Source of the DNA: a virus
Taxonomy: Duplodnaviria; Caudoviricetes
IMG/VR virus record: IMGVR_UViG_3300049792_000039
Location: 1 to 42,062 of that record
Direction: 5' to 3' (one strand)
Length of the DNA stretch: 42,062 nucleotides
Part shown: positions 8,404 through 42,062 of the stretch, piece after piece
Position numbering within the stretch: the first letter of the stretch is position 1
Layout: every line of letters starts with the position of its first letter
Translations under genes and position numbers: made by a program
Notes under the pieces: model-generated
The model's input: the letters and a program-made list of their open reading frames with translations, nothing else
What the model was told of the DNA's origin: nothing
Databases searched by the model: none

Positions 8404-8637
8404 ATGAAGCTCAGTAATCTTACTGGGGTGATCGCCTATTCGGGTGGTCAGCTCACCCTGCGCGAGGGCCAGACGGTGGACGACAACCACCCGATCGTCG
8501 CCGAGCGCCCCGAGCTGTTCCGAGATATCGAGGACGGCGTCGGCCAGACAGCCCAAACCCCCAATCCTCGTGTGGTCGAGTCGACCATGCAGACCGGCCC
8601 CGGCGGCGGCCGAGTCCGACGGGTTTCGGGTCAGTGA
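8404..8637 (+). CDS. Small head-module protein
   Basis: RBS GGGAGG; LREGQTVDDNHPIVAERPELF...VESTMQTGPG resembles proteins that commonly follow actinophage capsid genes. Confidence 0.7.
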   Translation: MKLSNLTGVIAYSGGQLTLREGQTVDDNHPIVAERPELFRDIEDGVGQTAQTPNPRVVESTMQTGPGGGRVRRVSGQ

Positions 8638-10194: not shown

Positions 10195-10888
10195 GCTTGC
10201 GGTTCTGGTGCCGACGCGGAGTCGCCCGCACAACATGCGACCGGTGATCGATGCTTGGTGGGCAACCGGAGCGTTCGGTGCGGCTGATTTGATTTTCGGT
10301 GTCGATGTCGATGACGCGCAATACCCGGCGTACGTCGAGATCGCGCGGTCCAACCCCCAGGTGAAGGTTGGGTTGCTCCCCGAGTGGCAACCGCTGGTCC
10401 CGAAGCTCAATTTCATGGCCCAGCTGGCAGCCAAGAACGAAGCTTACACGGCGATTGCCTTCATGGGCGATGATCACGTGCCGATCACGCCGATGTGGGC
10501 GCACATGTTGGTCCAGCACCACATGCGCAGGCCGAACTCGATCTGGTACGGGCCGGACGGTTTCCAGGACCAGAAGCTGCCGACGTGGTGGTCGATGGAT
10601 TCTCGGATCGTCCGGGCGCTCGGCGGGAGGATGGTTCCGGCTCCCGTCCAGCACATGTACTGCGATAACTCGGTCATGGAGCTTGGCAAGAAGACCGGCT
10701 CGCTCAACTACGATGAGCGAATTCTCATCGAGCATCGGCACCCGTTCGCCGGTAAAGGCAAGATGGATGCCCAGTACGAGCGGGTCAACCGGACTCAACA
10801 GTACGAGCGAGACGGCTTGGCGTTCCAGCGATGGATGGCTGACGGCCTAGAGGCAGATGCTAAGCTACTGTCGAGCGTAGGGGGGTGA
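10187..10888 (+). CDS. Glycosyltransferase, GT2-like
   Basis: LAVLVPTRSRP, FGVDVDD, FMGDDH (DD motif), HMYCDN, IEHRHP. Confidence 0.85.
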   Translation: MTRLAVLVPTRSRPHNMRPVIDAWWATGAFGAADLIFGVDVDDAQYPAYVEIARSNPQVKVGLLPEWQPLVPKLNFMAQLAAKNEAYTAIAFMGDDHVPITPMWAHMLVQHHMRRPNSIWYGPDGFQDQKLPTWWSMDSRIVRALGGRMVPAPVQHMYCDNSVMELGKKTGSLNYDERILIEHRHPFAGKGKMDAQYERVNRTQQYERDGLAFQRWMADGLEADAKLLSSVGG

Positions 10889-19987: not shown

Positions 19988-20428
19988 GTGCCAACAGGTG
20001 CAGGGCAGATCGTCGACGAGGACGATCTTAACGGATTCGGTCGGATCGCGACCTACAACGCTACCTTCAACTCGGGGGCGATCAACACTGTCGAGACGGT
20101 GGTCGACACGGTGGTCTGGCCGTCCATCGCGGGGCGGACCTACCGGCTCGAAGCCTACATCCCCTGGTCGCTCTCGGTCGCCAACGACGAGTTCCTGATC
20201 AGAATGCGGGAGGGAAGCACCACCGCCGGTGGTCAGTACCAGTATTCCTCGGTGAGGCAGGCCAGCACGGGTGTTTTCTCGGTCTATCTCATGACGGAGT
20301 GGACCGAGGTAACCACCGGCAACCGGAGCTTCAGCATCACCGCTCAGCGACAGAGCGGCACCGGGAACATCGTGTTGCGGGGTGCGGTCTCGCAGCCCCG
20401 GATCATCACGGTGGACCGGGTAATCTAA
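19988..20428 (+). CDS. Minor tail protein
   Basis: Beta-rich protein following the large tail gene. Confidence 0.6.
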   Translation: MPTGAGQIVDEDDLNGFGRIATYNATFNSGAINTVETVVDTVVWPSIAGRTYRLEAYIPWSLSVANDEFLIRMREGSTTAGGQYQYSSVRQASTGVFSVYLMTEWTEVTTGNRSFSITAQRQSGTGNIVLRGAVSQPRIITVDRVI

Positions 20429-20440
20429 GGAGGACGAGGC

Positions 20441-21133
20441 ATGGCAAGTTGGGTGCTAATTCCAGCTCTCAAGTCCCTGTTCGCGGAGTTCGATCGGATC
20501 GCCCCGGGCCGAGACAAGGCGAGCGACGGCAGCATCGGCGACACCGCACACTCACAGGAAGTCTCTGACCACAACCCGGACGAGACTGGTAGTGTGCCGA
20601 TCCATGACGCGGACGGCGTCAACGAGGTCCACGCGATCGACGTGGACAACAACCTCAACGAGTCCGACTTGACGATGGAGAAGGTGGTCCAGTTCTTGTT
20701 GGGTCGCTGCCGCTCCGGTGCCGAGAAGCGTCTTCGCTACATCATTTACAACCGTCGCATCTGGTCGGCATCGTCCGACTGGGTGCAGAAGACCTACACC
20801 GGCACGTCGCCGCACACCGAGCACGCGCACTTCAGTGCGTCGTACACCACATCGTTGGAGGCTTCAACGGCCTCCTGGCATCTGGAGGATATTCTCGTGG
20901 CACTGACTCAAGCGGACAAAGACTACATCGCCAACACGACGACGGCGGCAGCGAACAAAGCCGTGCAGGATGCGGCTCGACAGCTGCGACAGTCGCAGGA
21001 TCCGGGTTGGTCGGATACGGCCGCGCACAATCTGGCCGCCGACGCCGCCAACGCCGCTGCGGGTAAGCACGTTCTCGACTACTGGGGGGACCGCCAGACT
21101 GAGAACCCGGCCCCCGCGACCGCCAAGAAGTAG
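20441..21133 (+). CDS. Endolysin, probable Zn peptidase (M15-like HxxxxD...H)
   Basis: RDKASDGSIGDTAH..SDHNPD..VHAIDVD..YIIYNRRIWS..YTGTSPHTEHAHFS; precedes membrane genes. Confidence 0.8.
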   Translation: MASWVLIPALKSLFAEFDRIAPGRDKASDGSIGDTAHSQEVSDHNPDETGSVPIHDADGVNEVHAIDVDNNLNESDLTMEKVVQFLLGRCRSGAEKRLRYIIYNRRIWSASSDWVQKTYTGTSPHTEHAHFSASYTTSLEASTASWHLEDILVALTQADKDYIANTTTAAANKAVQDAARQLRQSQDPGWSDTAAHNLAADAANAAAGKHVLDYWGDRQTENPAPATAKK

Positions 21134-21207
21134 GCTGGAACTGGGCAGGGTATACTGCGGAGTGCCCCCTGCCCCCGCTGGACGAGTTCCCCTTAGGACG
21201 GATATGA

Positions 21208-21498
21208 GTGAGCGACGAGCGAGTCACCGGCCGGTCACGGCTGCCGGGAGCATGGACTTTGATCCGGGACGTGCTGTCGTTCCTGGGCGGGTGGGCTCTC
21301 ATTTTCATGGAGGTCCAGCGTACCGAACTGCGGGAGTCGGTTCTCATCCTAGCAGCTGGAATCGTCGGAGTGCCTTCAGCAGCGGTGGGGGCGCAGGCGC
21401 TGGTCGACGCTCTGGCCGCTCGCCGCACTGGTACCGGCGAGTCGTCCTCCTCGCCTCAGGCGGGAGCAGCCTCGCCGTCGGCGGGTTCGTCGTCGTGA
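21208..21498 (+). CDS. Membrane protein (lysis cassette)
   Basis: Two hydrophobic segments. Confidence 0.6.
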   Translation: MSDERVTGRSRLPGAWTLIRDVLSFLGGWALIFMEVQRTELRESVLILAAGIVGVPSAAVGAQALVDALAARRTGTGESSSSPQAGAASPSAGSSS

Positions 21499-21514
21499 AG
21501 GCGTTGGTTGGTTG

Positions 21515-21826
21515 ATGCCGAAGCGGCCTGTACACCTCCCCCTGTATGCGGTGGTCATCTTGGTCCTTGGTTCCACCCTGGGGCCGGTCTTGTCGATCAC
21601 CGCATCTGTTAAGATCGCAGAACACAACACGGCAGTGGCTGTGGCTCGTCAGGAGCAAGCCAAGGCGGAGGCGCGCGAGCAGAGCCGTTTGCTCGTTTGC
21701 GCGTTCTTCTCAGCGCAGCTCGACGTGTGGGACGAAACACCCCCCATGTCGGCTGCTGGTAAGAATCTACGCAAGACCAACCTGGAGTTCTACACGGCCT
21801 CCGGGTGTCAACCACCACGAAAGTAG
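21515..21826 (+). CDS. Membrane-anchored protein (lysis cassette)
   Basis: N-terminal TM segment followed by a coiled region with two Cys. Confidence 0.6.
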   Translation: MPKRPVHLPLYAVVILVLGSTLGPVLSITASVKIAEHNTAVAVARQEQAKAEAREQSRLLVCAFFSAQLDVWDETPPMSAAGKNLRKTNLEFYTASGCQPPRK

Positions 21827-21833
21827 GGACGAG

Positions 21834-22019
21834 ATGGGTAAGTTCAGCAAGGCGTGGGCGGGTGGAGTTGCGGGTGCCGTGGTCGGTGCCTCGTCGTATG
21901 CCTGGGGCAAGGACGGTTCGATCTCAGGTGAGATCGCGGGCTTCGTCGGCTCGGTCGTGGTCGGCTTCGTCGGCGGTTTCATCGTGGTGTTCATGAGCCC
22001 GGCCAACAAGCCCTCCTGA
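21834..22019 (+). CDS. Holin-like small membrane protein
   Basis: MGKFSKAWAGGVAGAVVG...GFIVVFMSPANKPS, two TM segments; RBS GGGACGAG. Confidence 0.65.
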   Translation: MGKFSKAWAGGVAGAVVGASSYAWGKDGSISGEIAGFVGSVVVGFVGGFIVVFMSPANKPS

Positions 22020-22133
22020 TTCGCCGTCATGCTGGCCCGGGGCCGCGCCTGGGGGTGCCCCCGCCCTGACGCACCGGGCCAGCCACGCCGATTCGTCCTC
22101 TGACCCCACAGATAGGCGGACGAGTCGGCACGG

Positions 22134-22184
22134 AGCGCCCCCCGGGACCCGTCGCCACCGGGGGGCGCTACCGTATGGTACAAT
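22134..22184 (+). promoter_or_regulatory. G/C hairpin plus extended -10 promoter for the neprosin-like gene
   Basis: AGCGCCCCCCGG...CCGGGGGGCGCT followed by TGGTACAAT (22176-22184). Confidence 0.6.
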
Positions 22185-22218
22185 ACTCTCTCATGGTACA
22201 CCCCATCAGGAGGTTTTA

Positions 22219-23259
22219 GTGTTCAAGAAGATGCTGGCTGCGCTCGCCGCGACCATCGTCGGGCTGGGGCTGGTTTCGGCTCCCGCGTCCGCTTCCGTTC
22301 CGGACTGGGACAAGAAGCCCGCCGTGTCGCCTCACAGCACCCAGGTGGCCAAGGACTTCCCGTTCCTTGTTTCTCACCAGAGGAAGACCGCTCTCACGCC
22401 GCCTTCCTCCATGGTCGTCCGGGCGTACACCGGTGCTCGTCAGGGAATCGTCTCCACCGGCTTCACCGCTGGCATGAAGGTTCGCGACAACTACTGGGAC
22501 ACGTACGACTACCACAACCTCACCGAGATCTCGGTGCAGGACAACAGCGACAACATCGTCGAGCTGATCTGGGGTCACGGTTCGTGGTGCCCGTCGAGCG
22601 CGACCTGCCTCGCCTCGTTCTACTGGGTGAACGGCGTGGGTGCGTCGAACTACAACGTCGGGTTCGTGGACTACGCGGGCAGCAACCTGAACATGGGCGA
22701 CACGCTGACCGGCACCACCGAAACGACTGGCTGCACGCTCCCGGCCAGCAAGAACGAGCGATTCTCGATCGCGAAGAACACGACTACCGGCGCGTGGATG
22801 CTGTGGGCGGACTTGTGCTACGGTGACTCTACGGCGGGCCAGTGGCTGGGCGAATTCCCGGCGTCGCTGTGGACCTCCTCGGGCGCGTCGTTCACGCAGT
22901 CCGACTTCGTGCAGATTTTCAACGAGACGGCCACCCAGTACAACGCTGGCGGCTCGCCGAACAACGACGGTTACCCGTGCTCGGACCAGGGTGCGTCGCT
23001 GGCGACTTCGGTCTCCGGCACCGGCATGCGGTTCGCGGACATGACACTCACCGGTGTGGCCAACACCTCGGTGAACTTCGTGCCGTACGTGGATTCGACC
23101 GGCGGGTACATCAACTCGGAGATGACCACCCCGGCTCCGGGCAAGTATGGCGCGGCGATCCTGGCGGGACAGCCCGCTGGCAACGCACGCTACATCAACG
23201 CCGGTGGTCTGGCGTTCGGCCCGACCGGCAACACCGTCGGCGGGGCTAACTGCACCTGA
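22219..23259 (+). CDS. Secreted neprosin-family (DUF239) glutamic peptidase-like protein
   Basis: Signal peptide ending ASA; HNLTEISVQ..NIVELIW, FYWVNG..NVGFVDY, WLGEFPASLW, FTQSDFVQIFNETA and PCSDQG parallel actinobacterial neprosin domains, with both catalytic Glu positions kept. Confidence 0.75.
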   Translation: MFKKMLAALAATIVGLGLVSAPASASVPDWDKKPAVSPHSTQVAKDFPFLVSHQRKTALTPPSSMVVRAYTGARQGIVSTGFTAGMKVRDNYWDTYDYHNLTEISVQDNSDNIVELIWGHGSWCPSSATCLASFYWVNGVGASNYNVGFVDYAGSNLNMGDTLTGTTETTGCTLPASKNERFSIAKNTTTGAWMLWADLCYGDSTAGQWLGEFPASLWTSSGASFTQSDFVQIFNETATQYNAGGSPNNDGYPCSDQGASLATSVSGTGMRFADMTLTGVANTSVNFVPYVDSTGGYINSEMTTPAPGKYGAAILAGQPAGNARYINAGGLAFGPTGNTVGGANCT

Positions 23260-23273
23260 CCCTGAATAGCAAC

Positions 23274-23303
23274 CGGCCCCCGTTTCACGTGAAACGGGGG
23301 CCG
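23274..23303. promoter_or_regulatory. parS: parS site inside a 30-bp perfect palindrome (also a likely bidirectional terminator)
   Basis: CGGCCCCC-GTTTCACGTGAAAC-GGGGGCCG; core 23282-23295 equals the actinobacterial parS consensus; lies between convergent genes. Confidence 0.88.
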
Positions 23304-23311
23304 TCTTGTGT

Positions 23312-23503
23312 TTAGGAGTGGACGGTCTGGTGGTGGATCTCCAGGAAGTCCACCCCACGGAGCATGCGGGGTGCGCTGACCAGGACCGTCGGGGGCAGCC
23401 CCGGGACCGGGACCTTCAGCTGGATCTTGACGATGCCCCGCGCGTCGGCTCTCATTTGGGTCTCCCTCGTCCGTTGGGCAGCTTCCGCCCTGTCTAATTC
23501 CAT
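23312..23503 (-). CDS. Hypothetical protein
   Basis: MELDRAEAAQRTRE...; last gene of the leftward whiB operon. Confidence 0.5.
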   Translation of the reverse strand: MELDRAEAAQRTRETQMRADARGIVKIQLKVPVPGLPPTVLVSAPRMLRGVDFLEIHHQTVHS

Positions 23504-23507
23504 TCTA

Positions 23508-23720
23508 TCACCGCTCGGCTCGCGGAACAAGGACTTCGACGGATCGGTGGTTGGCGGCAACGATGGTGCCGCTGGGCAGGTTCACCCACACGCGCCGTCT
23601 GGCTTGATCGATCCGGACCACGGTGCCGGTCGACCCGTAGTAGGCGTGACGGGGGTGGGTGAGCCTGACGTGGGAGAACAACCTGATCCCCACCAGCCCC
23701 GTCCGGTCATGGAGTCCCAC
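23508..23720 (-). CDS. Small SH3/KOW-like beta protein
   Basis: VRLTHPRHAYYGSTGTVVRIDQARRRVWVNL. Confidence 0.55.
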   Translation of the reverse strand: MGLHDRTGLVGIRLFSHVRLTHPRHAYYGSTGTVVRIDQARRRVWVNLPSGTIVAANHRSVEVLVPRAER

Positions 23721-24054
23721 GGCTCTTCGACCTTAGCGTCATTTCGAGCGCGGTCACCGTGGCTGCCTGGGCGGCCATTTCCTCGCGCCACCACCGGACG
23801 TCACTGACGGCCTCCTTGAACGGCGGGTAGGACTCCGCCCAGAGCGAGCGTTTAGCAGCCTCTTCGCTGTGCCTGCGCATCTTAGCCCAGGCCTTACGGT
23901 GGCGGGCGATAGCGTGCATCAGCTCCACCCGAGCCCGAATCAGCTCCCGCTCGACCTCGTCTGCGCTGGGTTGACCGCCCAGGACCCCGTGAGGGTAGTC
24001 GGCAGCGAACAGAGGAGCACCCAGCTCCAACGGCTTAGTCCTAATCCCGCCCAC
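23707..24054 (-). CDS. Hypothetical helical protein
   Basis: Overlaps its neighbours in an operon-like arrangement. Confidence 0.6.
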   Translation of the reverse strand: MGGIRTKPLELGAPLFAADYPHGVLGGQPSADEVERELIRARVELMHAIARHRKAWAKMRRHSEEAAKRSLWAESYPPFKEAVSDVRWWREEMAAQAATVTALEMTLRSKSRGTP

Positions 24055-24232
24055 GGGGAAGCCCCTTAATGCTGTCGGTCTCGCCGGAGTCGATCACGGC
24101 CTTCAGCTCGTCTTCGTTGATGCGGTTGTCCCACGGGCTGGTGTGTGGGTCGCTGCCGTATCGCCACGGGTTGAACCGGCGGCGCGGGAGTAGCGACCTC
24201 AGGTTACGCCATAGCCAGCGCACGGCGAACAC
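24041..24232 (-). CDS. Hypothetical protein
   Basis: Overlaps the whiB end and the next gene. Confidence 0.5.
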   Translation of the reverse strand: MFAVRWLWRNLRSLLPRRRFNPWRYGSDPHTSPWDNRINEDELKAVIDSGETDSIKGLPRGRD

Positions 24233-24461
24233 CTCCGGCTTGGCGGACAGCCTTCCGGCGCTCGGCTTCGCTCATACCGCCCCACACCCCGGCGTCCTGG
24301 CCGGTGTCGAACGCCCAGGCCAGGCACTCGGTTCGGACGGGGCAGAAGCTGCACACCGCCTTGGCCTCCTCGGTTTGCAGTTCGGCAGGGCCGGTTGTTC
24401 CCACGGGGAAGAACAGCTCGGGGTCTTCGTCTTGACAGGCCGCCTCGTGTCGCCAGTCCAT
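24204..24461 (-). CDS. whiB: WhiB-family transcription factor (WhiB1/WblE-like)
   Basis: MDWRHEAACQDEDPELFFP...AKAVCSFCPVRTECL...GVWGGMSEAER with four Cys. Confidence 0.96.
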   Translation of the reverse strand: MDWRHEAACQDEDPELFFPVGTTGPAELQTEEAKAVCSFCPVRTECLAWAFDTGQDAGVWGGMSEAERRKAVRQAGGVRRALAMA

Positions 24462-24507
24462 GTCGGGTGTCTCCTCTCGTCCTGTCCGGTCGACCCGGAC
24501 AATAACC

Positions 24508-24537
24508 ATCCCATCATGCTGGTTACCCCGCCGTCAA
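24508..24537 (-). promoter_or_regulatory. Promoter for whiB
   Basis: TTGACG-N18-TGGGAT; closely similar to the site at 38405-38434. Confidence 0.55.
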
Positions 24538-24649
24538 TCCCCCGGACAGCCGACGTCTTGACCCGCGAATAGGGGTTACGGCGTCGGCGGGTCATGTGGT
24601 AGACTACTCTAGAACGCAGCGCACCACCCCGAGTCCAGGAGGACGAGAC

Positions 24650-25342
24650 ATGACCGACATCGCCACCGAGGCCCCCGCTGAGGCTTCCGCTCCCACCGAA
24701 ACCACCCCTGCTCCCAAGCCCCCGAAGCCGGTTGTCCAGCCCCACCCCTGCCTCTGCCAGACCTTCGAGCTGTTCGGCACCGAGACGGTCAACGGGGAGC
24801 CGGAAGAGGTGACCTACCAGTCCGAGTGCGGCCTCAACACCAAGGGCACGTTCGCCCAGGGCCACGACGCCCGGCTGGTCAGCTTCCTGGTCGACGGCCA
24901 CCGTGACGGCTACTCGATCCGGCAGACCGTCAACGGCAACGCCACCAAGTTCGACACCCCGGCGCAGGCCGTCGCTTCCATCAGCGAGGCGCTGCGGAAC
25001 AAGGCGGAGAAGGCCACCGCCAACATGAAGTCCAAGCAACAGGCCAAGCAGGACGCCGCCAAGGAGCGCGAGGCCAAGAAGGCCGCTCGACAGGCCGAGA
25101 AGGCCCAGGCTGCCGCCGCCAAGGAGACCAAGAAGGCCGAAGCGAAGAACACCGGCGAGGTGGTCGCCGGTTCTACCACGGGCGACGTCGCGCCGCTGGC
25201 CGAGGGCCAGGTTCGCATCAAGGCCGGTCGGTGGGAGTACGTCGCCACCAAGAACGCGGACGGCGGGGTGACCTTCGTCGACGGCAAGGGCGAGACCCAG
25301 GTTCGCGCCGAGGGTGACGGATACACCGTCCTGGAAGGCTGA
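24650..25342 (+). CDS. Hypothetical protein with CxC..C..FAQGHDA motif and Lys/Ala-rich linker
   Basis: RBS AGGAGGACGAG; upstream TGGTAGACT; paralog of 26386..26931. Confidence 0.8.
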   Translation: MTDIATEAPAEASAPTETTPAPKPPKPVVQPHPCLCQTFELFGTETVNGEPEEVTYQSECGLNTKGTFAQGHDARLVSFLVDGHRDGYSIRQTVNGNATKFDTPAQAVASISEALRNKAEKATANMKSKQQAKQDAAKEREAKKAARQAEKAQAAAAKETKKAEAKNTGEVVAGSTTGDVAPLAEGQVRIKAGRWEYVATKNADGGVTFVDGKGETQVRAEGDGYTVLEG

Positions 25343-25424
25343 TCGAGCCGACACCGCCATGCGGTTCGAACAGGCCGCCCCAGGGGAATCCCCCTGGGGC
25401 GGATCCATGTGGTAAAATGGACGC

Positions 25425-25649
25425 ATGACGAAGTTCCGGGTCCAGTACACGTCGGTCAAGCCGGGCGGGGCGCGCGAACGCGAAGACGACATAGTTTACG
25501 CAGGCGACCGGGGTGTCCTGGCGGTTGGTGACTACCTCGATCAGCACAACGTCTGGGCGGCCGACCCGATCGTCGTCACTGAGCACACCCAGTCGGACGG
25601 CATCGGCCGGATCGTCCCAGCGAGCGAATGGGACGTCTGCGAAGACTGA
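25425..25649 (+). CDS. Hypothetical protein (probably leaderless)
   Basis: ATG 6 nt after TAAAAT. Confidence 0.7.
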   Translation: MTKFRVQYTSVKPGGAREREDDIVYAGDRGVLAVGDYLDQHNVWAADPIVVTEHTQSDGIGRIVPASEWDVCED

Positions 25650-25657
25650 ACAGAAAA

Positions 25658-25687
25658 CGGCCCCCGTTTCACGTGAAACGGGGGCCG
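25658..25687. promoter_or_regulatory. parS: parS site inside the identical 30-bp palindrome
   Basis: Core GTTTCACGTGAAAC at 25666-25679; lies between convergent genes. Confidence 0.88.
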
Positions 25688-25714
25688 CTCTGTACCCGGT
25701 GACGTGGTCGTTTA

Positions 25715-26110
25715 CTACTGGACGCGTTTCGCCGGGTCGTTGATGCGCTCGCGACTGGTGCCCCAGTCGTTCGCCACGATGCGGTGCTTCTCGACCGGCG
25801 CGCGGTCCGGCTCGTCGACGAAGTGGCCGTCCTCGGTGATGGCGCGACCCGACACCGCGTCGTGGTAACCGGCCTGGTTGACCACACGGCGGGGGTCGTC
25901 GCCGAGGACGTGCTCCGCCCCTTCGATGACCTCAGGCGTGCCGACCGGGCCGGTGCTGTGGTTCGCTGCCCCGGTCGGGTTCGCGTCCGACTGCAGGGGG
26001 CCGGGGGTTCCCGGGGTCGTTTGCTCGACGGTCGCCGGGCTGTCTCCGCCGGTCGTGTTCGCCTTGCTGTCGTCGGTCGTGCTCGTTTTGTTGTCGCGTG
26101 CGGTGGGCAT
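25715..26110 (-). CDS. Hypothetical low-complexity protein
   Basis: RBS GGGAGG; MPTARDNKTSTTDDSK...; Thr/Pro/Gly-rich. Confidence 0.7.
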   Translation of the reverse strand: MPTARDNKTSTTDDSKANTTGGDSPATVEQTTPGTPGPLQSDANPTGAANHSTGPVGTPEVIEGAEHVLGDDPRRVVNQAGYHDAVSGRAITEDGHFVDEPDRAPVEKHRIVANDWGTSRERINDPAKRVQ

Positions 26111-26190
26111 GTCGCCTCCCGAGTAGGGGGTGTGGATCCGTCCGATTAGCATACCACCGGCAGCGACCCAGCGCACGCGGACGGGTAAAC

Positions 26191-26298
26191 TTCCTAGGAC
26201 ACTAGGAAATCGAAGCGCTTCGACGGGAAAGCGCTTGCCTAAATCGATCACGAGGAGTGATGCCGGCCGTCACCTCGAGTAATGTGGCGTACGTCACA
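26191..26298. promoter_or_regulatory. Cluster of operator-like palindromes (unassigned IR, 2 LacI-like, 2 BldD-like, 1 CRP-like)
   Basis: TTCCTAG-N4-CTAGGAA; TCGAAGCGCTTCGA; GGAAAGCGCTTGCC; TCAC-N5-GTGA; TCAC-N5-GTAA; TGTGG-N6-TCACA. Confidence 0.6.
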
Positions 26299-26385
26299 CG
26301 GAGATGGCTTGTGCCGGGGGGTTCAATACGGTAGAATTCTTCTTAGAGGGCGAGGGAAACGAGCCCCAGACGGAAGAAGGCCCAA

Positions 26386-26931
26386 ATGCAGATCACCACC
26401 AAGCAGCTCCCGTGCTACTGCCGCTCCTTCGAGTTCGGCGAGTTCGATGGCGAGAACGAGAACGCCGTCAGCTACGACACCGACTGCGACCAAGTCACCA
26501 CCCGGGTTTTTGCCCAGGGTCACGACGCCAAGCTGGCGGGGTTCCTGGTCCGGGCCGAGATGGCAGGCGAGGAGATCCGCGTGGTCGAGGGCGGCGTCGC
26601 GATCAGCGGAGACGCCCGGTCGATGGCGCGCCGGGTGAGTGAGCCCTTTGAGGCCAAGGTGGTCGCCCTGATCGACGCCGCCCGTCGTCGGGTCGCCAAG
26701 AAGGCCCTCGCGGACGCCACTAAGGCCGCCCGCAAGTCGGCTAAGACCGCCGAGCGCAAGCTCGCCGAGGACGCCGGGGTGGTCGTGAAGCTGGCACCGA
26801 TCGAGGCCCGGATCAAGGTTGGCCGGTGGGAGTACGACGCCCAGATCGACCGGGACACCCGCGAGGCGACTTACGCGGGCAAGCTGGGCGGGAGCAAGAC
26901 GGTGGCGGAGGGCAAGTACTCGGTCCTGTGA
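26386..26931 (+). CDS. Hypothetical protein, paralog of 24650..25342
   Basis: PCYC...DC...FAQGHDAKL..FLV and RIKVGRWEY. Confidence 0.8.
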   Translation: MQITTKQLPCYCRSFEFGEFDGENENAVSYDTDCDQVTTRVFAQGHDAKLAGFLVRAEMAGEEIRVVEGGVAISGDARSMARRVSEPFEAKVVALIDAARRRVAKKALADATKAARKSAKTAERKLAEDAGVVVKLAPIEARIKVGRWEYDAQIDRDTREATYAGKLGGSKTVAEGKYSVL

Positions 26932-27026
26932 CGGACTTCACACGCCGGGGGGATTCCCCCCGGCGTCTCCGTCTGGTAAAATTGAATTTAGAGGGCGGGG
27001 GGACCGCCCACAACGAGGAGGACGAG

Positions 27027-27203
27027 ATGGCGAACGAAATCGGGACCCAGGCCAAGGAGCAGAACGTCCGGGTCTACCAGATGAGCGGCGAGGAAGTCGA
27101 GATCACCGTCCAGTACCCAACCAGCGAAACCCCCCTCCTGTTCGCCCTCAGCAACGCCGAGGCCAAGGCTCTGATGATCGCCCTGGCGCGGGTGCTAGCC
27201 TGA
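27027..27203 (+). CDS. Small hypothetical protein (58 aa)
   Basis: Follows a repeat module and RBS; MANEIGTQAKEQ... Confidence 0.75.
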   Translation: MANEIGTQAKEQNVRVYQMSGEEVEITVQYPTSETPLLFALSNAEAKALMIALARVLA

Positions 27204-27293
27204 ATCGACCGCCCCGGGGGGATTCCCCCCGGGGCTCCGGTGTAGTAGAATTGTATTGTAGGGCGGGGGACCGCCCAGGACGAGGAGGACGAG

Positions 27294-27590
27294 ATGGACA
27301 TCAACCAGGCAGCGAACCGACTGGGGATCCCGGCTAAGACGGCGTCGCCCAGCGAGGTCCGGGACGCGCTGGCGGCGATGCTGAACCGGCTCAACCACGA
27401 CGTCGACGGCGACCAGGACATCCAGGACGGCCATGTCCGGTTCGGGGAGCACGTCGCGGTGATGGGGCTGGCGGGTGACCTCGACCCCGTGTTCGAAGCG
27501 GCGCTGGACACGATGTCCTGGGACGACCCGGCGGCAGCCAACGCTGTCGAGCGCATCGGGATCCAGGTGGTCCGGTCGCGTTTCCTGTGA
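27294..27590 (+). CDS. Hypothetical protein
   Basis: Follows a repeat module and RBS. Confidence 0.75.
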   Translation: MDINQAANRLGIPAKTASPSEVRDALAAMLNRLNHDVDGDQDIQDGHVRFGEHVAVMGLAGDLDPVFEAALDTMSWDDPAAANAVERIGIQVVRSRFL

Positions 27591-27679
27591 AGTGCCCGGG
27601 GGGTTGTGGCGGACCCTCCGGTCTGATAAAATTGAATTAACGGGGCGGGGGGTCCGCCCATCAACCGAGGAGGACAAAA

Positions 27680-27856
27680 ATGGCAAGGAAGCGCGACGCG
27701 GCCAGCCCGAAAACCGGCGACGGCCGGACCAAGGGAGCGCCGATCCAGGGCAAGAACGTGGTCTTCCGGACCAGCGGAGGCAAGGCGACCGGCTCGGGCG
27801 AGAGCGCCGTTGCCAAGCTCATTCGGCTGGCAGCCGAACGGCTCGCCGGGAAGTAA
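27680..27856 (+). CDS. Small basic protein (58 aa, not in ORF track)
   Basis: GAGGAGG RBS; MARKRDAASPKTGDGRTK...LAAERLAGK. Confidence 0.7.
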   Translation: MARKRDAASPKTGDGRTKGAPIQGKNVVFRTSGGKATGSGESAVAKLIRLAAERLAGK

Positions 27857-27950
27857 TTCAGGTCACACGGGCCGGGGGGGGTTGTGGCGAACCTCCCGGC
27901 CTGGTAAAATTGAATTTAGAGGGCGGGGGGACCGCCCGGGAGAGGACGAG

Positions 27951-28118
27951 ATGGAAACCACCCCGAAGGCGCTGGCGGAGATCCTGGTGGCGGCAATGAA
28001 GGCAGCCGGAGCGACGGTGACCTACGTTAACGCCAGCGACGTCGGACGGGACGGTTTCTTCTACGCGACAATGCCGGATGGGATGGTCACCACCATCCGC
28101 GTCGAGATCAACGACTGA
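27951..28118 (+). CDS. Small hypothetical protein
   Basis: METTPKALAEIL...; follows a repeat module. Confidence 0.75.
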   Translation: METTPKALAEILVAAMKAAGATVTYVNASDVGRDGFFYATMPDGMVTTIRVEIND

Positions 28119-28135
28119 AGAACGAGGAGGACGAG

Positions 28136-28342
28136 ATGGAACGCATCGCCGTGGTGGACTTTCCGGACGACCGGGAGTCGGTCGCCCTCTGGCACACCGG
28201 CCCTGACCCCGACACCATTTACGCGGACATCCAGAGTGCCTTCGAGGCTGAGGGCTTCGACACGATCACCCTCTTTGAGACCAGCGCCGCTGAGGTCGCC
28301 CACATCAACCTGGAGGGCCTGGCATTCCTGCCCCACCTGTGA
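28136..28342 (+). CDS. Small acidic hypothetical protein
   Basis: RBS ACGAGGAGGACGAG. Confidence 0.75.
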   Translation: MERIAVVDFPDDRESVALWHTGPDPDTIYADIQSAFEAEGFDTITLFETSAAEVAHINLEGLAFLPHL

Positions 28343-28402
28343 CCTAAACCACACCGCCCGGGGGGATTCCTCCCGGGCGGTTTCATATGGTAAAATTGTA
28401 TT

Positions 28403-28606
28403 ATGGAGATCGAGGCGGCAGTTCAGGAAATGGTCGAGCGGATGGACCGGTCGATGGTCGGCACGTCGATGGCGCGTTGGGTCATCGCCGAGGGAACCCG
28501 CCGGGTCGGTCTCCCTGCCAACGAGCCACTCAAACTGCGGATGGCCTGCCGGATCCTTGTCCGGGCCGGAATCACCCTCGACGACCTCGCACGTCGGCAG
28601 AGCTGA
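28403..28606 (+). CDS. Small hypothetical protein (probably leaderless)
   Basis: ATG 6 nt after TAAAAT. Confidence 0.7.
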   Translation: MEIEAAVQEMVERMDRSMVGTSMARWVIAEGTRRVGLPANEPLKLRMACRILVRAGITLDDLARRQS

Positions 28607-28615
28607 GGAGACGAC

Positions 28616-28789
28616 ATGAACCCGAACCGCGTGCAGCGCTGGACCGGCTGGTTCCTCCTGTGGACGTCGGCCATGCTGGCGATCCTGGCGACGGTGCCGG
28701 AGAACGGGCTGTCCGCTCTCGCGATACTGCTCTCCGTGGTCTTCGGGCTGGTGGCCGTCGCCCACCTGCGCGGCCCCTGGGAGCGCTGA
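28616..28789 (+). CDS. Small two-TM membrane protein (not in ORF track)
   Basis: RBS GAGGAG; MNPNRVQRWTGWFLLWTSAMLAILA... Confidence 0.65.
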   Translation: MNPNRVQRWTGWFLLWTSAMLAILATVPENGLSALAILLSVVFGLVAVAHLRGPWER

Positions 28790-28803
28790 CGCCGGACGCA
28801 CGA

Positions 28804-28844
28804 GAGCGGCCCCTGCCGTCATACCCGGCAGGGGCCGCTCGTTT
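28804..28844. terminator. Hairpin between convergent operons
   Basis: GAGCGGCCCCTGCCG...CGGCAGGGGCCGCTC then GTTT. Confidence 0.75.
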
Positions 28845-28870
28845 GTCCCTGGACACGCGGGACGGCGAAT

Positions 28871-29269
28871 CTACGGGGTCTCGGGGGGCTCCGGCGTCTC
28901 GATCAAGGCGTTCAGTGCCTCGATCTCGGCCACCCGGACCGGACGGTCGTCTTGACTGATCTGGTAAAGCCTTTCCTTTGCTATGCGGCGCAGGGCAGGC
29001 GACGGCGGGCCCGCGCTACCGTCAATCGGCCAGCCGTAAAGGGTGGGGACCGTCGTCGGTGCCTCCAGGCGAGCCCGTGGAACCGGCATCGGCTCCGGCA
29101 GCATCAGGAACTCGGCGAGCTTGACTACTGCGTCGGCGCGCTCCGGGCCGGTCATCGGGCGGTACCCGTCGACCTTGTACCCACGCCCGTTCACCTCGGT
29201 GCTGCCCATCTTCTCGACCAGCTCGAAAGCCGTCTTGAGAGCGCTCTCTCGGTTCATCGCTCCGCTCAT
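28871..29269 (-). CDS. Hypothetical protein
   Basis: Last gene of the leftward purZ operon. Confidence 0.65.
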   Translation of the reverse strand: MSGAMNRESALKTAFELVEKMGSTEVNGRGYKVDGYRPMTGPERADAVVKLAEFLMLPEPMPVPRARLEAPTTVPTLYGWPIDGSAGPPSPALRRIAKERLYQISQDDRPVRVAEIEALNALIETPEPPETP

Positions 29270-29339
29270 TTCGTGAGTACCGCCCAGATGAGGACGGTGT
29301 AGCCGACGGCAACGGCCAGGATCGCCGCTTCCAGGCCGA

Positions 29340-30248
29340 TCAGCGTCCCGAGCTGCCGTAGCCGTTCAGCCCACGCTCGTGCTCCGGCAGTTCGTCGACC
29401 GTCTCGATCCCGCCCCCGAAAACCGGCAGCAAAATAAGCTGCGCCAGCCGGGTCCCGGCCTGCCAATACTGCGTATTGCGGGATTCGTTCTTCAGCATGA
29501 TTATCAACTCCCCACGGTAGCCCGAGTCGATGACCCCCGGCTGGGTCCGGCACTGGTACTGTCGCCACGTCGACGACCGGCCCGTGATCAGACCGAAGTA
29601 TCCCTCCGGGATGGCGACGTGAACGCCGGTGGGCAGGGAACGGGACTCTCCGGCTGGGATGTGCTCCTCCCCCGAAATCGCCAGGTCGATTCCCGCATCC
29701 CCCCGGTACCGGCCTGTGGTTAGGTTCGCTGCCCCGTCCTTGAGTACCTGCAATACCGGCGGGGCGGCTACGGCGATGGGCAGGCAAGGCTTTTCCTCCT
29801 GGAAGTGGGCGGCGAGGCCGGGAGCCGATTCGATTAGGAACTGGAACGTCTCGGGTACAGGCCAAACGAACTCGGGGTCGGCCATGTTCATGATCATCGC
29901 CCCCCGGCGCGTCCAGGCAGCGACCTGGACCGAGTGGCCGATGTCGGTGAAGATCACGACCGGCTTCCGCATGGACAGGGCGAACTCGATCTCGACGGGT
30001 GTGCCCAAGGTCGGCACGTCCGACGGCAGGACCGCGATTAACGCGTCGGCCTGGTGGATGGCGATGTTGTTGAGGTCGTTGATGCGCTCGACGTGGTCCG
30101 AGGTGCTAGTGTTGGCGAGATACGCCATGCCGGGTCGGAACGCGCCGATCCCAGCCTGAACCAGCAGAGTGTTGAGGTCGCCGAGCATGGACCCGAGCCA
30201 GGAGCTGTGACCGGCCAGGTCAATCGGGTGGGCGAGGTAGACGAACAA
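29340..30248 (-). CDS. Fusion of a nucleoside 2-deoxyribosyltransferase/dNMP N-glycosidase-like domain and a trimeric dUTPase-like domain
   Basis: N-term VYLAHP...ADALIA...GTPVEIEFA...KPVVI; C-term AGIDL, GRSS, GVIDSGYRGE, RLAQLI, RGLNGYGSSG. Confidence 0.88.
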   Translation of the reverse strand: MFVYLAHPIDLAGHSSWLGSMLGDLNTLLVQAGIGAFRPGMAYLANTSTSDHVERINDLNNIAIHQADALIAVLPSDVPTLGTPVEIEFALSMRKPVVIFTDIGHSVQVAAWTRRGAMIMNMADPEFVWPVPETFQFLIESAPGLAAHFQEEKPCLPIAVAAPPVLQVLKDGAANLTTGRYRGDAGIDLAISGEEHIPAGESRSLPTGVHVAIPEGYFGLITGRSSTWRQYQCRTQPGVIDSGYRGELIIMLKNESRNTQYWQAGTRLAQLILLPVFGGGIETVDELPEHERGLNGYGSSGR

Positions 30249-30277
30249 GGGTAGACCTTCCTAGGTGGTGGCGCCCC

Positions 30278-30291
30278 GTTTCACGTGAAAC
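30278..30291. promoter_or_regulatory. parS: Third parS site
   Basis: Perfect GTTTCACGTGAAAC in a short intergenic gap within the purZ operon. Confidence 0.85.
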
Positions 30292-30307
30292 GGAGCGGCC
30301 GGAGTTG

Positions 30308-30724
30308 TCAGGCTTGCGGGTTGTCGCGGATCGGTCGCGGGCGCACCACGGTGGACGTGCGTTCGTCGCGGCTGGCAATCTCGGTGGGGCGTACCTTGGC
30401 CTGGAGGCGCTCCTCGCGGGTGCCGGTTGGCAGGTAGCCGAGGAACGAGTCGAGGTACTCGTAGACCTCACTGAGCCACCCGTCGCGGAGGCGGAAGTCG
30501 CGGCTGTCGACCCACTCGCGGTTGGTCAGGCCGCCGTGCTTGCGAATCCGCATCTCACCGCCGGAGAAGGCAAACGAGACGACGCATTTCGGCTCGGCGT
30601 TGGTCTCCAGCTCCTCGGGTCGACCGGGGATGGTGTGCATCCGGTAGCGGGCGATCAGCCGTGCTCGGGTGATCGAGATGAAGCGATCGGGTGCGCTGAC
30701 CTCAGCGAAATGAGCGGTGGTCAT
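30308..30724 (-). CDS. Hypothetical protein in the purZ operon
   Basis: ATGA overlap with the upstream gene; RBS AAGGAGG. Confidence 0.7.
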   Translation of the reverse strand: MTTAHFAEVSAPDRFISITRARLIARYRMHTIPGRPEELETNAEPKCVVSFAFSGGEMRIRKHGGLTNREWVDSRDFRLRDGWLSEVYEYLDSFLGYLPTGTREERLQAKVRPTEIASRDERTSTVVRPRPIRDNPQA

Positions 30725-31347
30725 TCGGTTTCCTCCTTGATGCCGGGCCAGCCGCCGGATTCCCGGACGCGCTGGGCCATGCGGACGTAGATTCCGATGT
30801 CGAGCATGGTGTCCTCCGACACCTGGCGACCTTCCATGATCGCAGACCGCCAGCGGGCCAGCTTGCCTTCGATGTAGAAGTAGATGCCCAGTTCGGCTGC
30901 CACCGCGTCGGTAGTCGGTTGCTGTCCCGTCAGCCGGAGGAGGTTGGTCCCGATATCGACCAGGTCCGTCGAGCCGTATTCAACGGCCTTGGCGACCGTC
31001 TGCTCGATCTCGCTCTCGGCTTTGGCACGCCACCAGTCGGCCAGCCGGTCGGCGGGGGTCGGAGGTAGGAACGGCGGAGTGGTGAACATCTGCCCCGCGT
31101 TGGTGATCAGGTCAGCCCAGGCGTGGGGCGGGAGCGGGTCGGAGGCGAGTCCGGCGATGGCAGGCAGCTCCTCCGCCCTACCATCGGTGTACCAGGCGAG
31201 TAGTTCGGTTCGATTGTAGTGGCGCTCGTCGCCGGTGTCGTTGTGCCGCTTGGGTCGCTCGCACTGGACACGAACGCTGAGATTGCGAGGGTTTTTGATG
31301 GTCTTGCGGCACCGGGTGGTGGTGCCGTCGGCCATGAACGGGTTCAC
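30721..31347 (-). CDS. DUF1599/Nmad1-like all-alpha (MazG-like) protein with an N-terminal Cys/His motif
   Basis: KAVEYGS...KLARW...EDTMLDIGIYVRMA pattern; translationally coupled to purZ. Confidence 0.6.
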   Translation of the reverse strand: MNPFMADGTTTRCRKTIKNPRNLSVRVQCERPKRHNDTGDERHYNRTELLAWYTDGRAEELPAIAGLASDPLPPHAWADLITNAGQMFTTPPFLPPTPADRLADWWRAKAESEIEQTVAKAVEYGSTDLVDIGTNLLRLTGQQPTTDAVAAELGIYFYIEGKLARWRSAIMEGRQVSEDTMLDIGIYVRMAQRVRESGGWPGIKEETE

Positions 31348-32378
31348 AGGTCCACCACCGTCTCCGGTCCGGTGCCGACGTAATCGATGTTGATTTCAAG
31401 GCGCTGCTCCAGGTCCTCGACGAACTCCATGGCGTGCGGGTCGTCGAGGGTGGTCCGGTCCTTTACCGTGGGGAACTTCTGATCCAGCATGGTCAGGGCC
31501 ATACCAACCCGGGGGTTGAAGTTGCCTCCGCCGTTGGCGGCAATGGCTTCGATCACGAGGTCCTGGTCCCACTCTCCGACCCGCCGGACCTTCTGGGTGA
31601 CCGTGGTCCGCTCGATCGGCAGGCCGAGGTCTTCCCAGGTCGTCTCGCCCTTGAGCGGGCCGGACGGTCCGGCGACCCGGATGGGGTAGATTCGTGCGAC
31701 CAGGATCACGTCCAACTCGCCGATCCACTCCGCCCAGGGGCTGATGCCGCACATTGCGAGGAAGTCCACTGCTCGGCAGTCGCTGCTGGTCACCGTCGGG
31801 TAGAACGGGGTGTGCAGCCCGAGGCCGTAACCCTGGGTGCCCTCGATCACGACCTTGTCGTACGTCCCGAAGTCCATGTCGTAACCGCAGTCGTCGAACA
31901 ACCACCGGGCCAGGGTCGGTGACGACATGGCGGTGTCGGCTTCGCGCATGATCCGGGCCGCACGGGCGGCACCGATGCCCTTGCCCGTCGAGCCGATTCG
32001 CCCGACCAGGCCCATCGACTGCTCGTCGCCGATGTACTTCGGGTGCAGGATGGTTGCTGCGGGGCTGATCGTCAGACGGCTGCTCACGTTGAAGCCCGCG
32101 TCGTCCAGGTCTTGGATCTCGCCGATCAGGACCTCGGTGTCGATCTCCGACCCGGACGCGATGTGCAACCGGCAGTTCGAGCTGGTCACGGCAGCGACCG
32201 GCACAGCACGGAGCTTCCACTCCCGGTGGTTGGCATCGTAAGCCGTGTGACCGGCGTTGGGGCCTGCAACCCGCACGGCGATGTCGTCGCCGAACATCTC
32301 CTTGCCCAGGTGACCGGCGATGGCCCCCTTGCCTTCGGAGCCGAACTGTGCTCCGACGACTACGGTAACGTGCGTCAT
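31344..32378 (-). CDS. purZ: PurZ0-type 2-amino-deoxyadenylosuccinate synthase (PurA paralog)
   Basis: GAQFGSEGKG (Ser in place of the PurA Asp), RVAGPNAGH, GSTGKGIG, IEGTQGYGLGLH, PIRVAG.SG, ERTTVT.K.RRVG, TMLD (GTP-type), GTGP. Confidence 0.9.
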   Translation of the reverse strand: MTHVTVVVGAQFGSEGKGAIAGHLGKEMFGDDIAVRVAGPNAGHTAYDANHREWKLRAVPVAAVTSSNCRLHIASGSEIDTEVLIGEIQDLDDAGFNVSSRLTISPAATILHPKYIGDEQSMGLVGRIGSTGKGIGAARAARIMREADTAMSSPTLARWLFDDCGYDMDFGTYDKVVIEGTQGYGLGLHTPFYPTVTSSDCRAVDFLAMCGISPWAEWIGELDVILVARIYPIRVAGPSGPLKGETTWEDLGLPIERTTVTQKVRRVGEWDQDLVIEAIAANGGGNFNPRVGMALTMLDQKFPTVKDRTTLDDPHAMEFVEDLEQRLEINIDYVGTGPETVVDL

Positions 32379-32481: not shown

Positions 32482-33696
32482 ATGATCCCACGATATTCCG
32501 ATTCCCTGGTCGACCGACTCTACTCAGACGAATGGACGTTCGACGCGTGGCTCGGCATCGAACGCGCCGCGCTGGCCGCGCAGATCCAGAACGGTGTGGT
32601 CCCCGAAGAGGCCAGGCTGCTCTGGCGCTGGCTGGAGAAATGCCACAGCGATGAGGAGACGGCGAGCTGGATCCGGGTCCTCGAACGAACCGAGACCCAC
32701 CATGACGTGGCGGCGTTCCTGAAACACTGGCGCATGGCGCGCGGCCAGGACGACGCGAAGTGGCTGCACTACGGCCTGACGTCGTCTGACCTTGTGGATA
32801 CCACCCAGGCGCTGCGGTTCCGGCGGTTGCACGTCGAGTACCGCGATCGTGCTCAGGAGCTGCTGTCCGCGATCCTGCGGTGGACCGAGGTGGACCAGCC
32901 GATGCTGGGTCTGACTCACGGTCAGCCGGGGGAGCCGACCTCCATCCGGGCGCGCGCGTTCGGATGGATCGCCGAGATCGAGCACGGTCTGCAGGCGGTC
33001 AGCCGACAGAACCGGGCGATGCAGGTGATGAAGCTGTCCGGCCCGATGGGCACGTTCGCCCACAACCCGCCCGAGGTGGAGGCCACGGTGGCGATCGAGC
33101 TGGGGTTGATTCCGATGGGGGCAGGTGCGACCCAGATCTTACCTCGGTCGGCTCTGTCACTGTGGGCCTCTTCTTGTGCCGCGCTGGTCGCTGCTTGCTC
33201 CAAAGTCGCCCACGATCTGCGGCTTCTCAATTCCAGCGACGAGCTGTTCTGGCCTCGGGCCGGTGAGCACGTCGGGTCATCGGCGATGCCGCACAAGAAC
33301 AACCCGATCGAGGCGGAGCAGGTTCGGGGGATGGCCCGGCTCGCCCGGGGCTACGCTGCCGCGCTGGAAGCCGACCCGCTGTGGCTGGAGCGTGACATCT
33401 CCAACTCCAGCGTGGAGCGGGTTGCCGTACCCGACCTGTGGCACACCGTCTTCCACGCCATGAAGCTGACCACCCGTGCGTTGACCGACATGGAACTGCG
33501 CCCCCTGGTCATCGAGGAGCGTCTGATGAACCGGGCAAACGAGGCTTGGTCGCACAAGACGACGTTGATGGCCATCGCTGACGGCGAGTCCTACGATGAG
33601 GCGCGGGAGTTCGGGCGCGAGGTTCAGATTGAGTCGTACGACATCCTGGAAGACGCGCGATGGTTCACGCGCCAGTATCCGAAGGCCAAGCAGTGA
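32482..33696 (+). CDS. purB: Adenylosuccinate lyase
   Basis: MIPRYS, THHDVAAF, HYGLTSSDLVDT, THGQ, KLSGPMGT, GSSAMPHKNNP, WLERDISNSSVER. Confidence 0.93.
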   Translation: MIPRYSDSLVDRLYSDEWTFDAWLGIERAALAAQIQNGVVPEEARLLWRWLEKCHSDEETASWIRVLERTETHHDVAAFLKHWRMARGQDDAKWLHYGLTSSDLVDTTQALRFRRLHVEYRDRAQELLSAILRWTEVDQPMLGLTHGQPGEPTSIRARAFGWIAEIEHGLQAVSRQNRAMQVMKLSGPMGTFAHNPPEVEATVAIELGLIPMGAGATQILPRSALSLWASSCAALVAACSKVAHDLRLLNSSDELFWPRAGEHVGSSAMPHKNNPIEAEQVRGMARLARGYAAALEADPLWLERDISNSSVERVAVPDLWHTVFHAMKLTTRALTDMELRPLVIEERLMNRANEAWSHKTTLMAIADGESYDEAREFGREVQIESYDILEDARWFTRQYPKAKQ

Positions 33697-41779: not shown

Positions 41780-42038
41780 CCTAGACAATGAGAATGACCT
41801 GATCATGGTTCGCACGATCAGCGGACGGGTCGTGAAAGCTGGGGACTTGGCAGATGGGTACCGTCGCCTCGACCAGGTTCTACATGTAGTCCCCGCCGAC
41901 CAGCCTGGCGCTGTCGGCCATGCCGTCGAAGTCGCCCGCTGGAGAGACGATGACGACAACCGGGAGCTAGAAATCGAGGTTATCCGCTGGGAGGCTGTGG
42001 AGAGCATCGTGTGGAGAGATCCGAAACGCAAACGGTAG
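41751..42038 (+). CDS. Hypothetical protein
   Basis: Overlaps the end of the primase gene; start uncertain. Confidence 0.55.
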   Translation: MADSEQWPFSLDNENDLIMVRTISGRVVKAGDLADGYRRLDQVLHVVPADQPGAVGHAVEVARWRDDDDNRELEIEVIRWEAVESIVWRDPKRKR

Positions 42039-42044
42039 TAGTGT

Positions 42045-42059
42045 GGGAGGGTGGGCGGG
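42045..42059 (+). other. Canonical G-quadruplex motif
   Basis: GGG-A-GGG-T-GGG-C-GGG at the contig end. Confidence 0.7.
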
Positions 42060-42062
42060 CTC

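Follow-up and report, generated by a model that had tools for sequence, protein, structure and literature searches.

Perfect host-type parS sites in an integrase-less siphovirus lineage that likely infects Actinoplanes

Introduction

Phage-plasmids of the P1 type encode ParA and ParB together with a cognate partition site. Another arrangement, the use of the host's own centromere site parS, is documented in the literature searched only for the phi29 family, where it is explained by trapping of the phage in endospores; segregation of phi29 DNA depends on the host protein Spo0J (PMC2731898). Here we describe three perfect copies of a host-type parS in a virus of the class Caudoviricetes, IMG/VR record IMGVR_UViG_3300049792_000039, whose 42,062 nucleotides are referred to below as the window. 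The record is a single virus record with a CheckV completeness of 92% and represents a near-complete siphovirus from soil, known only as an uncultured virus.

An earlier note on this DNA proposed that the phage recruits host ParB for segregation into spores or hyphal tips and was aware of no such description for an actinophage. On the second point we agree within the reach of our search: in the full text covered, which took in few subscription journals and no annotation supplements, host-type parS was not reported from any actinophage. The paper on Lacachita deals with a ParB-like gene of the phage itself and not with host parS. The chromosomal system that such a phage would exploit is described in Streptomyces, where each oriC is bound by ParB, and ParA directs chromosomes to new hyphal tips as well as to spores (PMC5157956).

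Results

The 14-mer GTTTCACGTGAAAC occurs exactly at positions 23282, 25666, and 30278, with no further match in the window at up to two mismatches. Chance would supply very few such copies (a mean of 0.08 in 100 shuffles, none of which held three). As the earlier note had observed, all three sites are intergenic and two of them sit inside an identical 30-bp palindrome between convergent genes; each also extends to a 16-mer with C and G flanks, and together they are spread over ~7 kb. Site A (23282..23295) lies in a palindrome (23274..23303) that is terminator-like on both strands, between the convergent open reading frames (ORFs) 22219-23259 (+) and 23312-23455 (-), where the late operon meets the leftward whiB operon. 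Site B (25666..25679), whose slot is the one occupied most often among relatives, lies in the second palindrome (25658..25687) between ORFs 25425-25649 (+) and 25715-26110 (-), where a scan for U-tract terminators was negative. Site C (30278..30291) is found between two co-directional minus-strand genes, ~30 nt upstream of a dmtZ-dutZ-like gene, within a shorter RNA hairpin (30272..30297, minus strand) that is closed by a G-U pair on the sense strand.

The likely host is Actinoplanes, an assignment drawn from one gene, the putative endolysin (20441..21133, +). Residues 1-175 of its product are up to 89% identical to Actinoplanes/Paractinoplanes genes, and all 55 confirmed loci of lysin homologues are titled Actinoplanes, Paractinoplanes, or allied genera. 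All four complete Actinoplanes chromosomes examined hold exact copies of the 14-mer (9, 9, 8, and 9), and 34 of these 35 copies fall in one cluster per chromosome, at most ~9 kb long and near the record end. This origin-side cluster flanks parB and parA in G017, the one host genome checked for these genes. The ParB of G017 carries R173/T179/N184/G201, including the specificity residues R173 and G201 of the parS-specific RXXG class (positions counted by hand, with the numbering of PMC7383237). The published consensus TGTTNCACGTGAAACA is shared by B. subtilis and C. glutamicum (PMC7022226, Table 1), so the earlier identification of the 14-mer as an actinobacterial chromosomal parS is right as to host type and too narrow as to actinobacteria.

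Retention of the site was followed across a clade comprising 16 IMG/VR records found through the capsid protein, G021, and the window. Alignment searches found further relatives, and single-protein locus searches with the 24650 protein or PurZ yielded no confirmed IMG/VR relatives. A site at up to one mismatch is present in 7 of the 16 capsid-related records, including all seven longer than 27 kb, and the reversed-pattern control gave none in the same 16 records. The nine misses are fragments of 6-23.5 kb, the longest of which stops at the holin gene, before the parS region; G021 contributes two more sites. All nine long clade genomes, window included, carry one to three parS sites. These genomes are syntenic, with ~30-80% protein identity. 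One record, G008, is classed as a provirus. We discounted this class because the record has no integrase and stops just short of purZ; the label would reflect trimming of host-looking genes.

To follow variation within the site, we pooled the nine genomes with 16 metagenome loci picked after the site results were seen (14 with sites and 2 long misses), which gave 35 distinct sites at up to two mismatches. Of these, 14 are perfect, 18 differ at one position, and 3 differ at two. Among their 24 substitutions, 22 fall at position 4/11, the N of TGTTNCACGTGAAACA in the consensus of PMC7022226. The five sites of phi29, found by the same search, vary at this same position. Two clade sites lie inside coding sequence and are written in rare codons, one in the dUTPase gene of G007 (GTT CCA CGT GGA, 4-10% usage each) and one in purB of G011 (TTT, 6%).

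Given the palindromes around sites A and B, the 14-mer might be nothing but the top of a terminator hairpin, its identity with parS a by-product. It is true that 17 of the 35 sites lie in hairpins with arms of at least 6 bp (3 others have arms of 4 bp) and that slots B and C keep hairpins without parS in some relatives. However, 15 of the 35 sites have arms of at most 2 bp, effectively no hairpin, and a terminator is hard to reconcile with the two sites in coding sequence. At slot C, moreover, a 12-bp stem is kept in six genomes with compensatory change at 6 of 7 outer pairs and at 0 of 5 core pairs, so that the arms covary and the parS core does not. We consider the terminator-only explanation very improbable. 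Several relatives have a slot B or C hairpin that persists with an unrelated top, or a parS that lies just outside the hairpin. The earlier note had counted hairpins kept without the 14-bp core as evidence against its proposal; this is what is seen at single slots (B and C), but not in genomes, every long one of which keeps at least one parS. Since the core does not covary, sites occur without hairpins and in coding sequence, and slots occur without parS, the hairpin appears to be what stays constant at a slot, and parS to be a DNA word under selection of its own that can shift from one slot to another. The data support regarding the phage sites as host-type parS under selection as DNA sequence, and because 22 of 24 substitutions hit the free position and hairpins are missing at 15 of 35 sites, loading of host ParB at these sites is very likely.

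The lineage does not appear to supply this protein itself. Six-frame searches of nine clade records, with working controls, found no ParB_N, no ParA (AAA_31), no tyrosine integrase, and no serine-recombinase domain (0/9 for each), and none was found in Pfam/PHROG scans of the 67 window ORFs, in keeping with the absences reported in the earlier note. An integrase is unlikely to be missing from the record by accident, because both window ends fall in the interval between the PrimPol gene and the next gene, which relatives span with just ~250-300 nt and no large gene. A phage-encoded protein other than ParB might still read the site, and several small clade-wide proteins belong to no known family. 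The main candidate among these, encoded at 26386..26931 (+), was modeled confidently (pLDDT 92), but the model has no significant match to ParB or to any solved fold: Foldseek gave none at E<=0.001, the best Z score was 5.8 on a plain helix, and there was no usable Atlas match, an absence that is not decisive for a hidden ParB. Together with the lack of ParB_N in the nine records and the identical site in unrelated phages, this leaves a phage-encoded reader with hardly any probability in our estimation.

The site is by no means confined to this clade. The C/G-flanked 16-mer occurs in an estimated ~240 IMG/VR stretches, some of which may be host DNA, against 2 for the reversed control. Of the cultured-phage records, 107, 472, and 375 were matched by three 30-nt parS-centered queries and 46 by a control hairpin, although the match sets overlap, are redundant and flank-limited, and may include host contigs among the unannotated records. 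Phages of Arthrobacter, Listeria, Clostridium, Microbacterium, Bacillus, and Gordonia are the leading groups. By host, Arthrobacter accounts for 97, 70, and 59 records in the three queries, Microbacterium for 64, and Gordonia for 25, and Lactobacillus and Enterococcus are also represented; records of Streptomyces phages number 5, no more than 11, and no more than 9. Spore formation is not known from Arthrobacter, Microbacterium, Gordonia, Listeria, Lactobacillus, or Enterococcus. Because the site is common in phages of such hosts, a spore-only purpose does not explain its spread, though it may still apply to the present lineage. Parallel observations are parS-like matches, often several per genome, in small single-stranded DNA Microviridae as well as 18-kb phages of Enterococcus and Clostridium, and a 21.9-kb IMG/VR contig (L006/L007) with four parS 16-mers within ~2 kb.

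Whole-record checks of 15 cultured phages gave a mixed picture. Perfect parS is present in Wayne, Hiyaa, Galactica, Keanu, and Spocter, and phi29 has five sites; no site is present in phiAsp2, phiC31, Ghobes, Zanella, or Cicada. Jay2Jay has only one two-mismatch match, at non-tolerated positions, and every match in Archimedes, Theresita, and Parvaparticeps includes a change at a non-tolerated position. The Streptomyces phages with purZ have one site each: Hiyaa (MK279841.1) at 71612, inside gene 103 and directly after an FtsK gene; Keanu (MT723933.1) at 70523; Spocter (PQ114745.1) at 71132; and Galactica (MT316461.1) at 54303, just upstream of purB. In Arthrobacter phage Wayne (KU160672.2, L408), which belongs with ~90 related Arthrobacter phage records, the site is at 36450. 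Among IMG/VR records outside the clade that were found through PurZ or the paralogous clade proteins described below (8 of 50 supplied loci lay outside coverage), 9 of 41 have the site, and 6 of these 9 are similar records of 43-44 kb (G053, G056, G057, G059, G060, and G062) holding one to four sites. A strict link between PurZ and parS was considered and rejected, given the PurZ phages without a site (Ghobes, Zanella, and Cicada) or with only poor matches (Archimedes, Theresita, and Parvaparticeps).

These surveys bear directly on whether entrapment in spores, as in phi29, is the main benefit of the sites. Under this proposal the lytic cycle would halt in sporulating hyphae, host ParAB would segregate the phage into sporangiospores, and the cycle would restart at germination, possibly via Crp. 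The likely host is reported to form sporangia and zoospores, phi29 provides a precedent (PMC2731898), and Hiyaa, Galactica, Keanu, and Spocter, the four Streptomyces phages with PurZ that were checked, each carry a perfect site. Against these points stand the abundance of parS-like matches in phages of non-sporulating hosts and their scarcity in those of Streptomyces, the lack of sites in phiC31 and phiAsp2, and the poor match in Jay2Jay. Nor do the candidate sensors of host development put forward in the earlier note fit. BldD-like boxes are at chance level in the window (5 versus 5.44 expected) and absent from G001, G008, and G011, so no enrichment was found of boxes for BldD, the sporulation regulator proposed as the analogue of Spo0A in phi29. 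The WhiB-family gene (24204..24461, -) encodes a protein that matches WhiB1 (E = 5e-34) far better than the sporulation WhiB (E = 6e-15).

Boxes of a different kind are enriched. Among 18 clade records, all but G009 contain the CRP-type palindrome TGTGA-N6-TCACA (PMC10187061), with 44 copies in the 17 positive records versus ~10 expected (Markov background, six replicates). The window alone has 3 versus 0.94 expected, which is not significant: 26283..26298 (one mismatch), 26927..26942 (perfect), and 28338..28353 (one mismatch), centered at about -53.5, -54.5, and -57.5 from the inferred early-promoter starts. Across the clade, 24 of the 44 box centers lie at -53.5 to -59.5, 9 at -65.5 to -67.5, and 2 at -49.5, with 9 unplaced; the boxes keep helical phase upstream of an early promoter that recurs and that consists of a GC palindrome followed by a TAAAAT/TAGAAT -10 element. 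The likely host encodes Crp with a RETVNK recognition helix, and Crp is critical for spore germination in S. coelicolor (PMC3520106), which lends entrapment some further support. For any sensing of host state, Crp of the host, acting at the early promoters, would be a likelier input than BldD. On balance we think it rather unlikely that spore entrapment is the main benefit; what stands of the proposal in the earlier note is the likely recruitment of ParB, and not the spore-specific purpose.

The neighborhood of site C introduces a further question, that of the chemistry of the phage DNA. The window encodes a PurZ0-like 2-aminoadenylosuccinate synthetase (31344..32378, -) with Ser in the GSEGKG motif, a PurB-like adenylosuccinate lyase (32482..33696, +) recognized by family match, and a DmtZ-DutZ-like NDT-dUTPase fusion (29340..30248, -) that has 31% identity to Wayne gp53 across its length. 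The phage thus possesses both hallmarks of the PurZ0 group of phages with 2-aminoadenine (Z) genomes, purZ with Ser in place of the catalytic Asp and the dmtZ-dutZ fusion, and likely makes 2-aminoadenine DNA. No PolA family match that could represent DpoZ was found among the 67 window ORFs, and it looks like either PrimPol or a host polymerase serves as the replicase. An ORF of no known family at 30721-31347 follows purZ, as it does in many PurZ loci.

Proximity to these genes raises the possibility that ParB regulates phage transcription locally, by blocking or silencing it where operons end and next to the Z genes; expression would then depend on how much host ParB is present or on whether the DNA contains A or Z. 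Sites beside Z genes recur in separate lineages: slot C keeps its place ~30 nt upstream of dmtZ-dutZ in six clade genomes, and other sites lie inside purB (G011), at the end of purB (L277), ~20 nt upstream of purZ (Wayne), and 18 nt upstream of purB (Galactica). Repression by ParB next to parS is also reported in P. aeruginosa (PMC7022226). Yet the site is not adjacent to Z genes in G001, G009, L354, Hiyaa, Keanu, Spocter, G043, or L309, the PurZ phages Ghobes, Zanella, and Cicada do without it, and movement of parS between slots would be unusual for a gene-specific operator. We judge regulation to be an improbable primary role.

The remaining gene content is that of a siphovirus, with a head-tail module, PrimPol, a UvrD-like helicase, and an exonuclease identified in the scans of the 67 ORFs, and a direct search of cultured-phage DNA with window positions 20000-27000 returned no close relative. 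The last rightward late gene (22219..23259, +) encodes a secreted-looking protein of 346 aa and stops 14 nt ahead of hairpin A; its homologue in G006 has a weak Neprosin match (E = 9e-5). The small leftward gene that converges on hairpin B (25715..26110, -) has homologues in relatives. The clade-wide protein encoded at 26386..26931 has a paralogue, likewise of no known family, at 24650..25342 (+), the two sharing a Cys/FAQGHDA motif, a long helix, and an SH3/Tudor-like end; the C-terminal domain of the 24650 protein is a beta domain. Homologues of these paralogues occur in small islands of 4 of 401 host-family genomes, and the three with 20-kb surroundings inspected are not this phage. Between the capsid and connector genes, two glycosyltransferase-like genes and a CmcI-type methyltransferase gene (8634-10888), kept in most relatives, possibly serve virion glycosylation. 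NADAR-domain genes are found in the early cassette of two relatives (L225:5102-5542 and L238:15884-16321). The break of the window itself (41990-42062 plus 1-250) sits in the repeat-rich interval after PrimPol, a possible origin, and near position ~2060, where the contigs of several relatives begin or end at probable genome ends, the window reads through.

Discussion

The best reading of these results, which we favor by a modest measure, is that the phage borrows the partitioning machinery of its host in a general way, with spores as one possible destination. It is based on the identity of the sites to those of the host cluster, their retention throughout the lineage, their turnover between slots, the concentration of variation at the free position, and the lack of par and integrase genes. 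Host ParB clamps would load at parS on the nonintegrated phage DNA, and host ParA, possibly with SMC, would then position and partition that DNA as it does oriC. Partition would then be the selected benefit, in that phage genomes could travel along hyphae, reach new branches and daughter cells, and, in a sporulating host, enter sporangiospores. Intergenic gaps where genes end probably cost the phage little as locations for parS, and there transcription would disturb ParB least.

Several observations weigh against this reading. The clade sites are related by descent, so the counts given above are not independent events. A site is present in only 15 of the 32 metagenome loci L346-L377; most misses are pieces of 1-3 kb, but two longer loci that extend over two slots, L356 (12.6 kb) and L360 (6.3 kb), are also without parS. 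The sole cultured Actinoplanes phage checked, phiAsp2, is without the site, which means that parS is not needed to infect Actinoplanes. No purZ was found in 401 Micromonosporaceae genomes, in a search that had no positive control, nor did the lineage turn up there as a carrier or a prophage, so a persistent extrachromosomal state is hypothetical. More generally, sequence does not separate partition from regulation or titration.

Finally, if the phage DNA holds Z, ParB would have to read a modified parS. The extra amino group of Z lies in the minor groove. As the recognition helix of ParB enters the major groove (PMC7383237), binding of ParB to Z-containing parS is plausible, and Wayne, which is treated as a Z phage in PMC12884076, keeps a perfect parS.

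Titration deserves separate comment, since it too would begin with ParB on phage DNA. Phage genomes might draw ParB off oriC and stall segregation and septation, so that the compartment stays large or fails to sporulate. The host has 8-9 exact sites per origin, which tens of phage genomes with one to three sites each would outnumber, and extra parS can lower fitness in Caulobacter (PMC5815017). A decoy, however, would be expected to favor many copies, whereas the clade genomes keep one to three; titration therefore seems a long shot.

The borrowing of host partitioning may extend further than this lineage. It is conceivable, if speculative, that host-centromere borrowing is widespread among integrase-less phages, and that here ParB carries a Z genome through hyphae and into sporangiospores while Crp fires the early genes at germination. 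If so, this two-part reading of the host through ParB and Crp would constitute the first actinophage spore-carriage system and a case of ParB reading Z-DNA. Short of that, an actinophage lineage that keeps parS under a ParB-type sequence constraint already goes beyond the endospore case of the phi29 family. The questions raised are how host partitioning benefits a phage that has no integrase and whether ParB binds a centromere in 2-aminoadenine DNA. The presence of parS in cultured phages of both sporulating (Streptomyces) and non-sporulating (Arthrobacter) hosts makes the general question testable in laboratory strains.

Compared with known systems, the lineage is closest to the Bacillus phages phi29 and Nf, whose parS sites are bound by host Spo0J and with which it shares several host-type parS on a phage without par genes or an integrase (PMC2731898). 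It differs in being a 42-kb siphovirus of a probable filamentous actinomycete, phi29 being a terminal-protein podovirus; in having CRP-type boxes in place of a Spo0A equivalent (BldD); in the frequent location of its sites in terminator-type hairpins; and in encoding a 2-aminoadenine pathway. Spore entrapment, moreover, is only a candidate here. Phage-plasmids with their own parABS, such as P1 and the extrachromosomal mycobacterial prophages (PMC7157519), likewise have no integrase and carry partition sites on phage DNA, but this lineage encodes neither ParA nor ParB and was not found resident in the 401 host-family genomes (searched, as noted, without a positive control).

With the actinobacterial chromosomal ParABS system (PMC7022226 and PMC5157956) the phage shares the 14-mer and its free position. 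The host copies flank parAB near the origin, whereas the phage sites stand alone, one to three copies over ~7 kb, and ParA and ParB would act in trans if at all. Relative to the PurZ0 Z-genome actinophages exemplified by Arthrobacter phage Wayne (PMC12884076), the window has PrimPol only and no DNA polymerase I (DpoZ), a PurB of its own, and a different virion module. What the two have in common are PurZ (46.7% identical), the DmtZ-DutZ fusion (31%), and a perfect parS.

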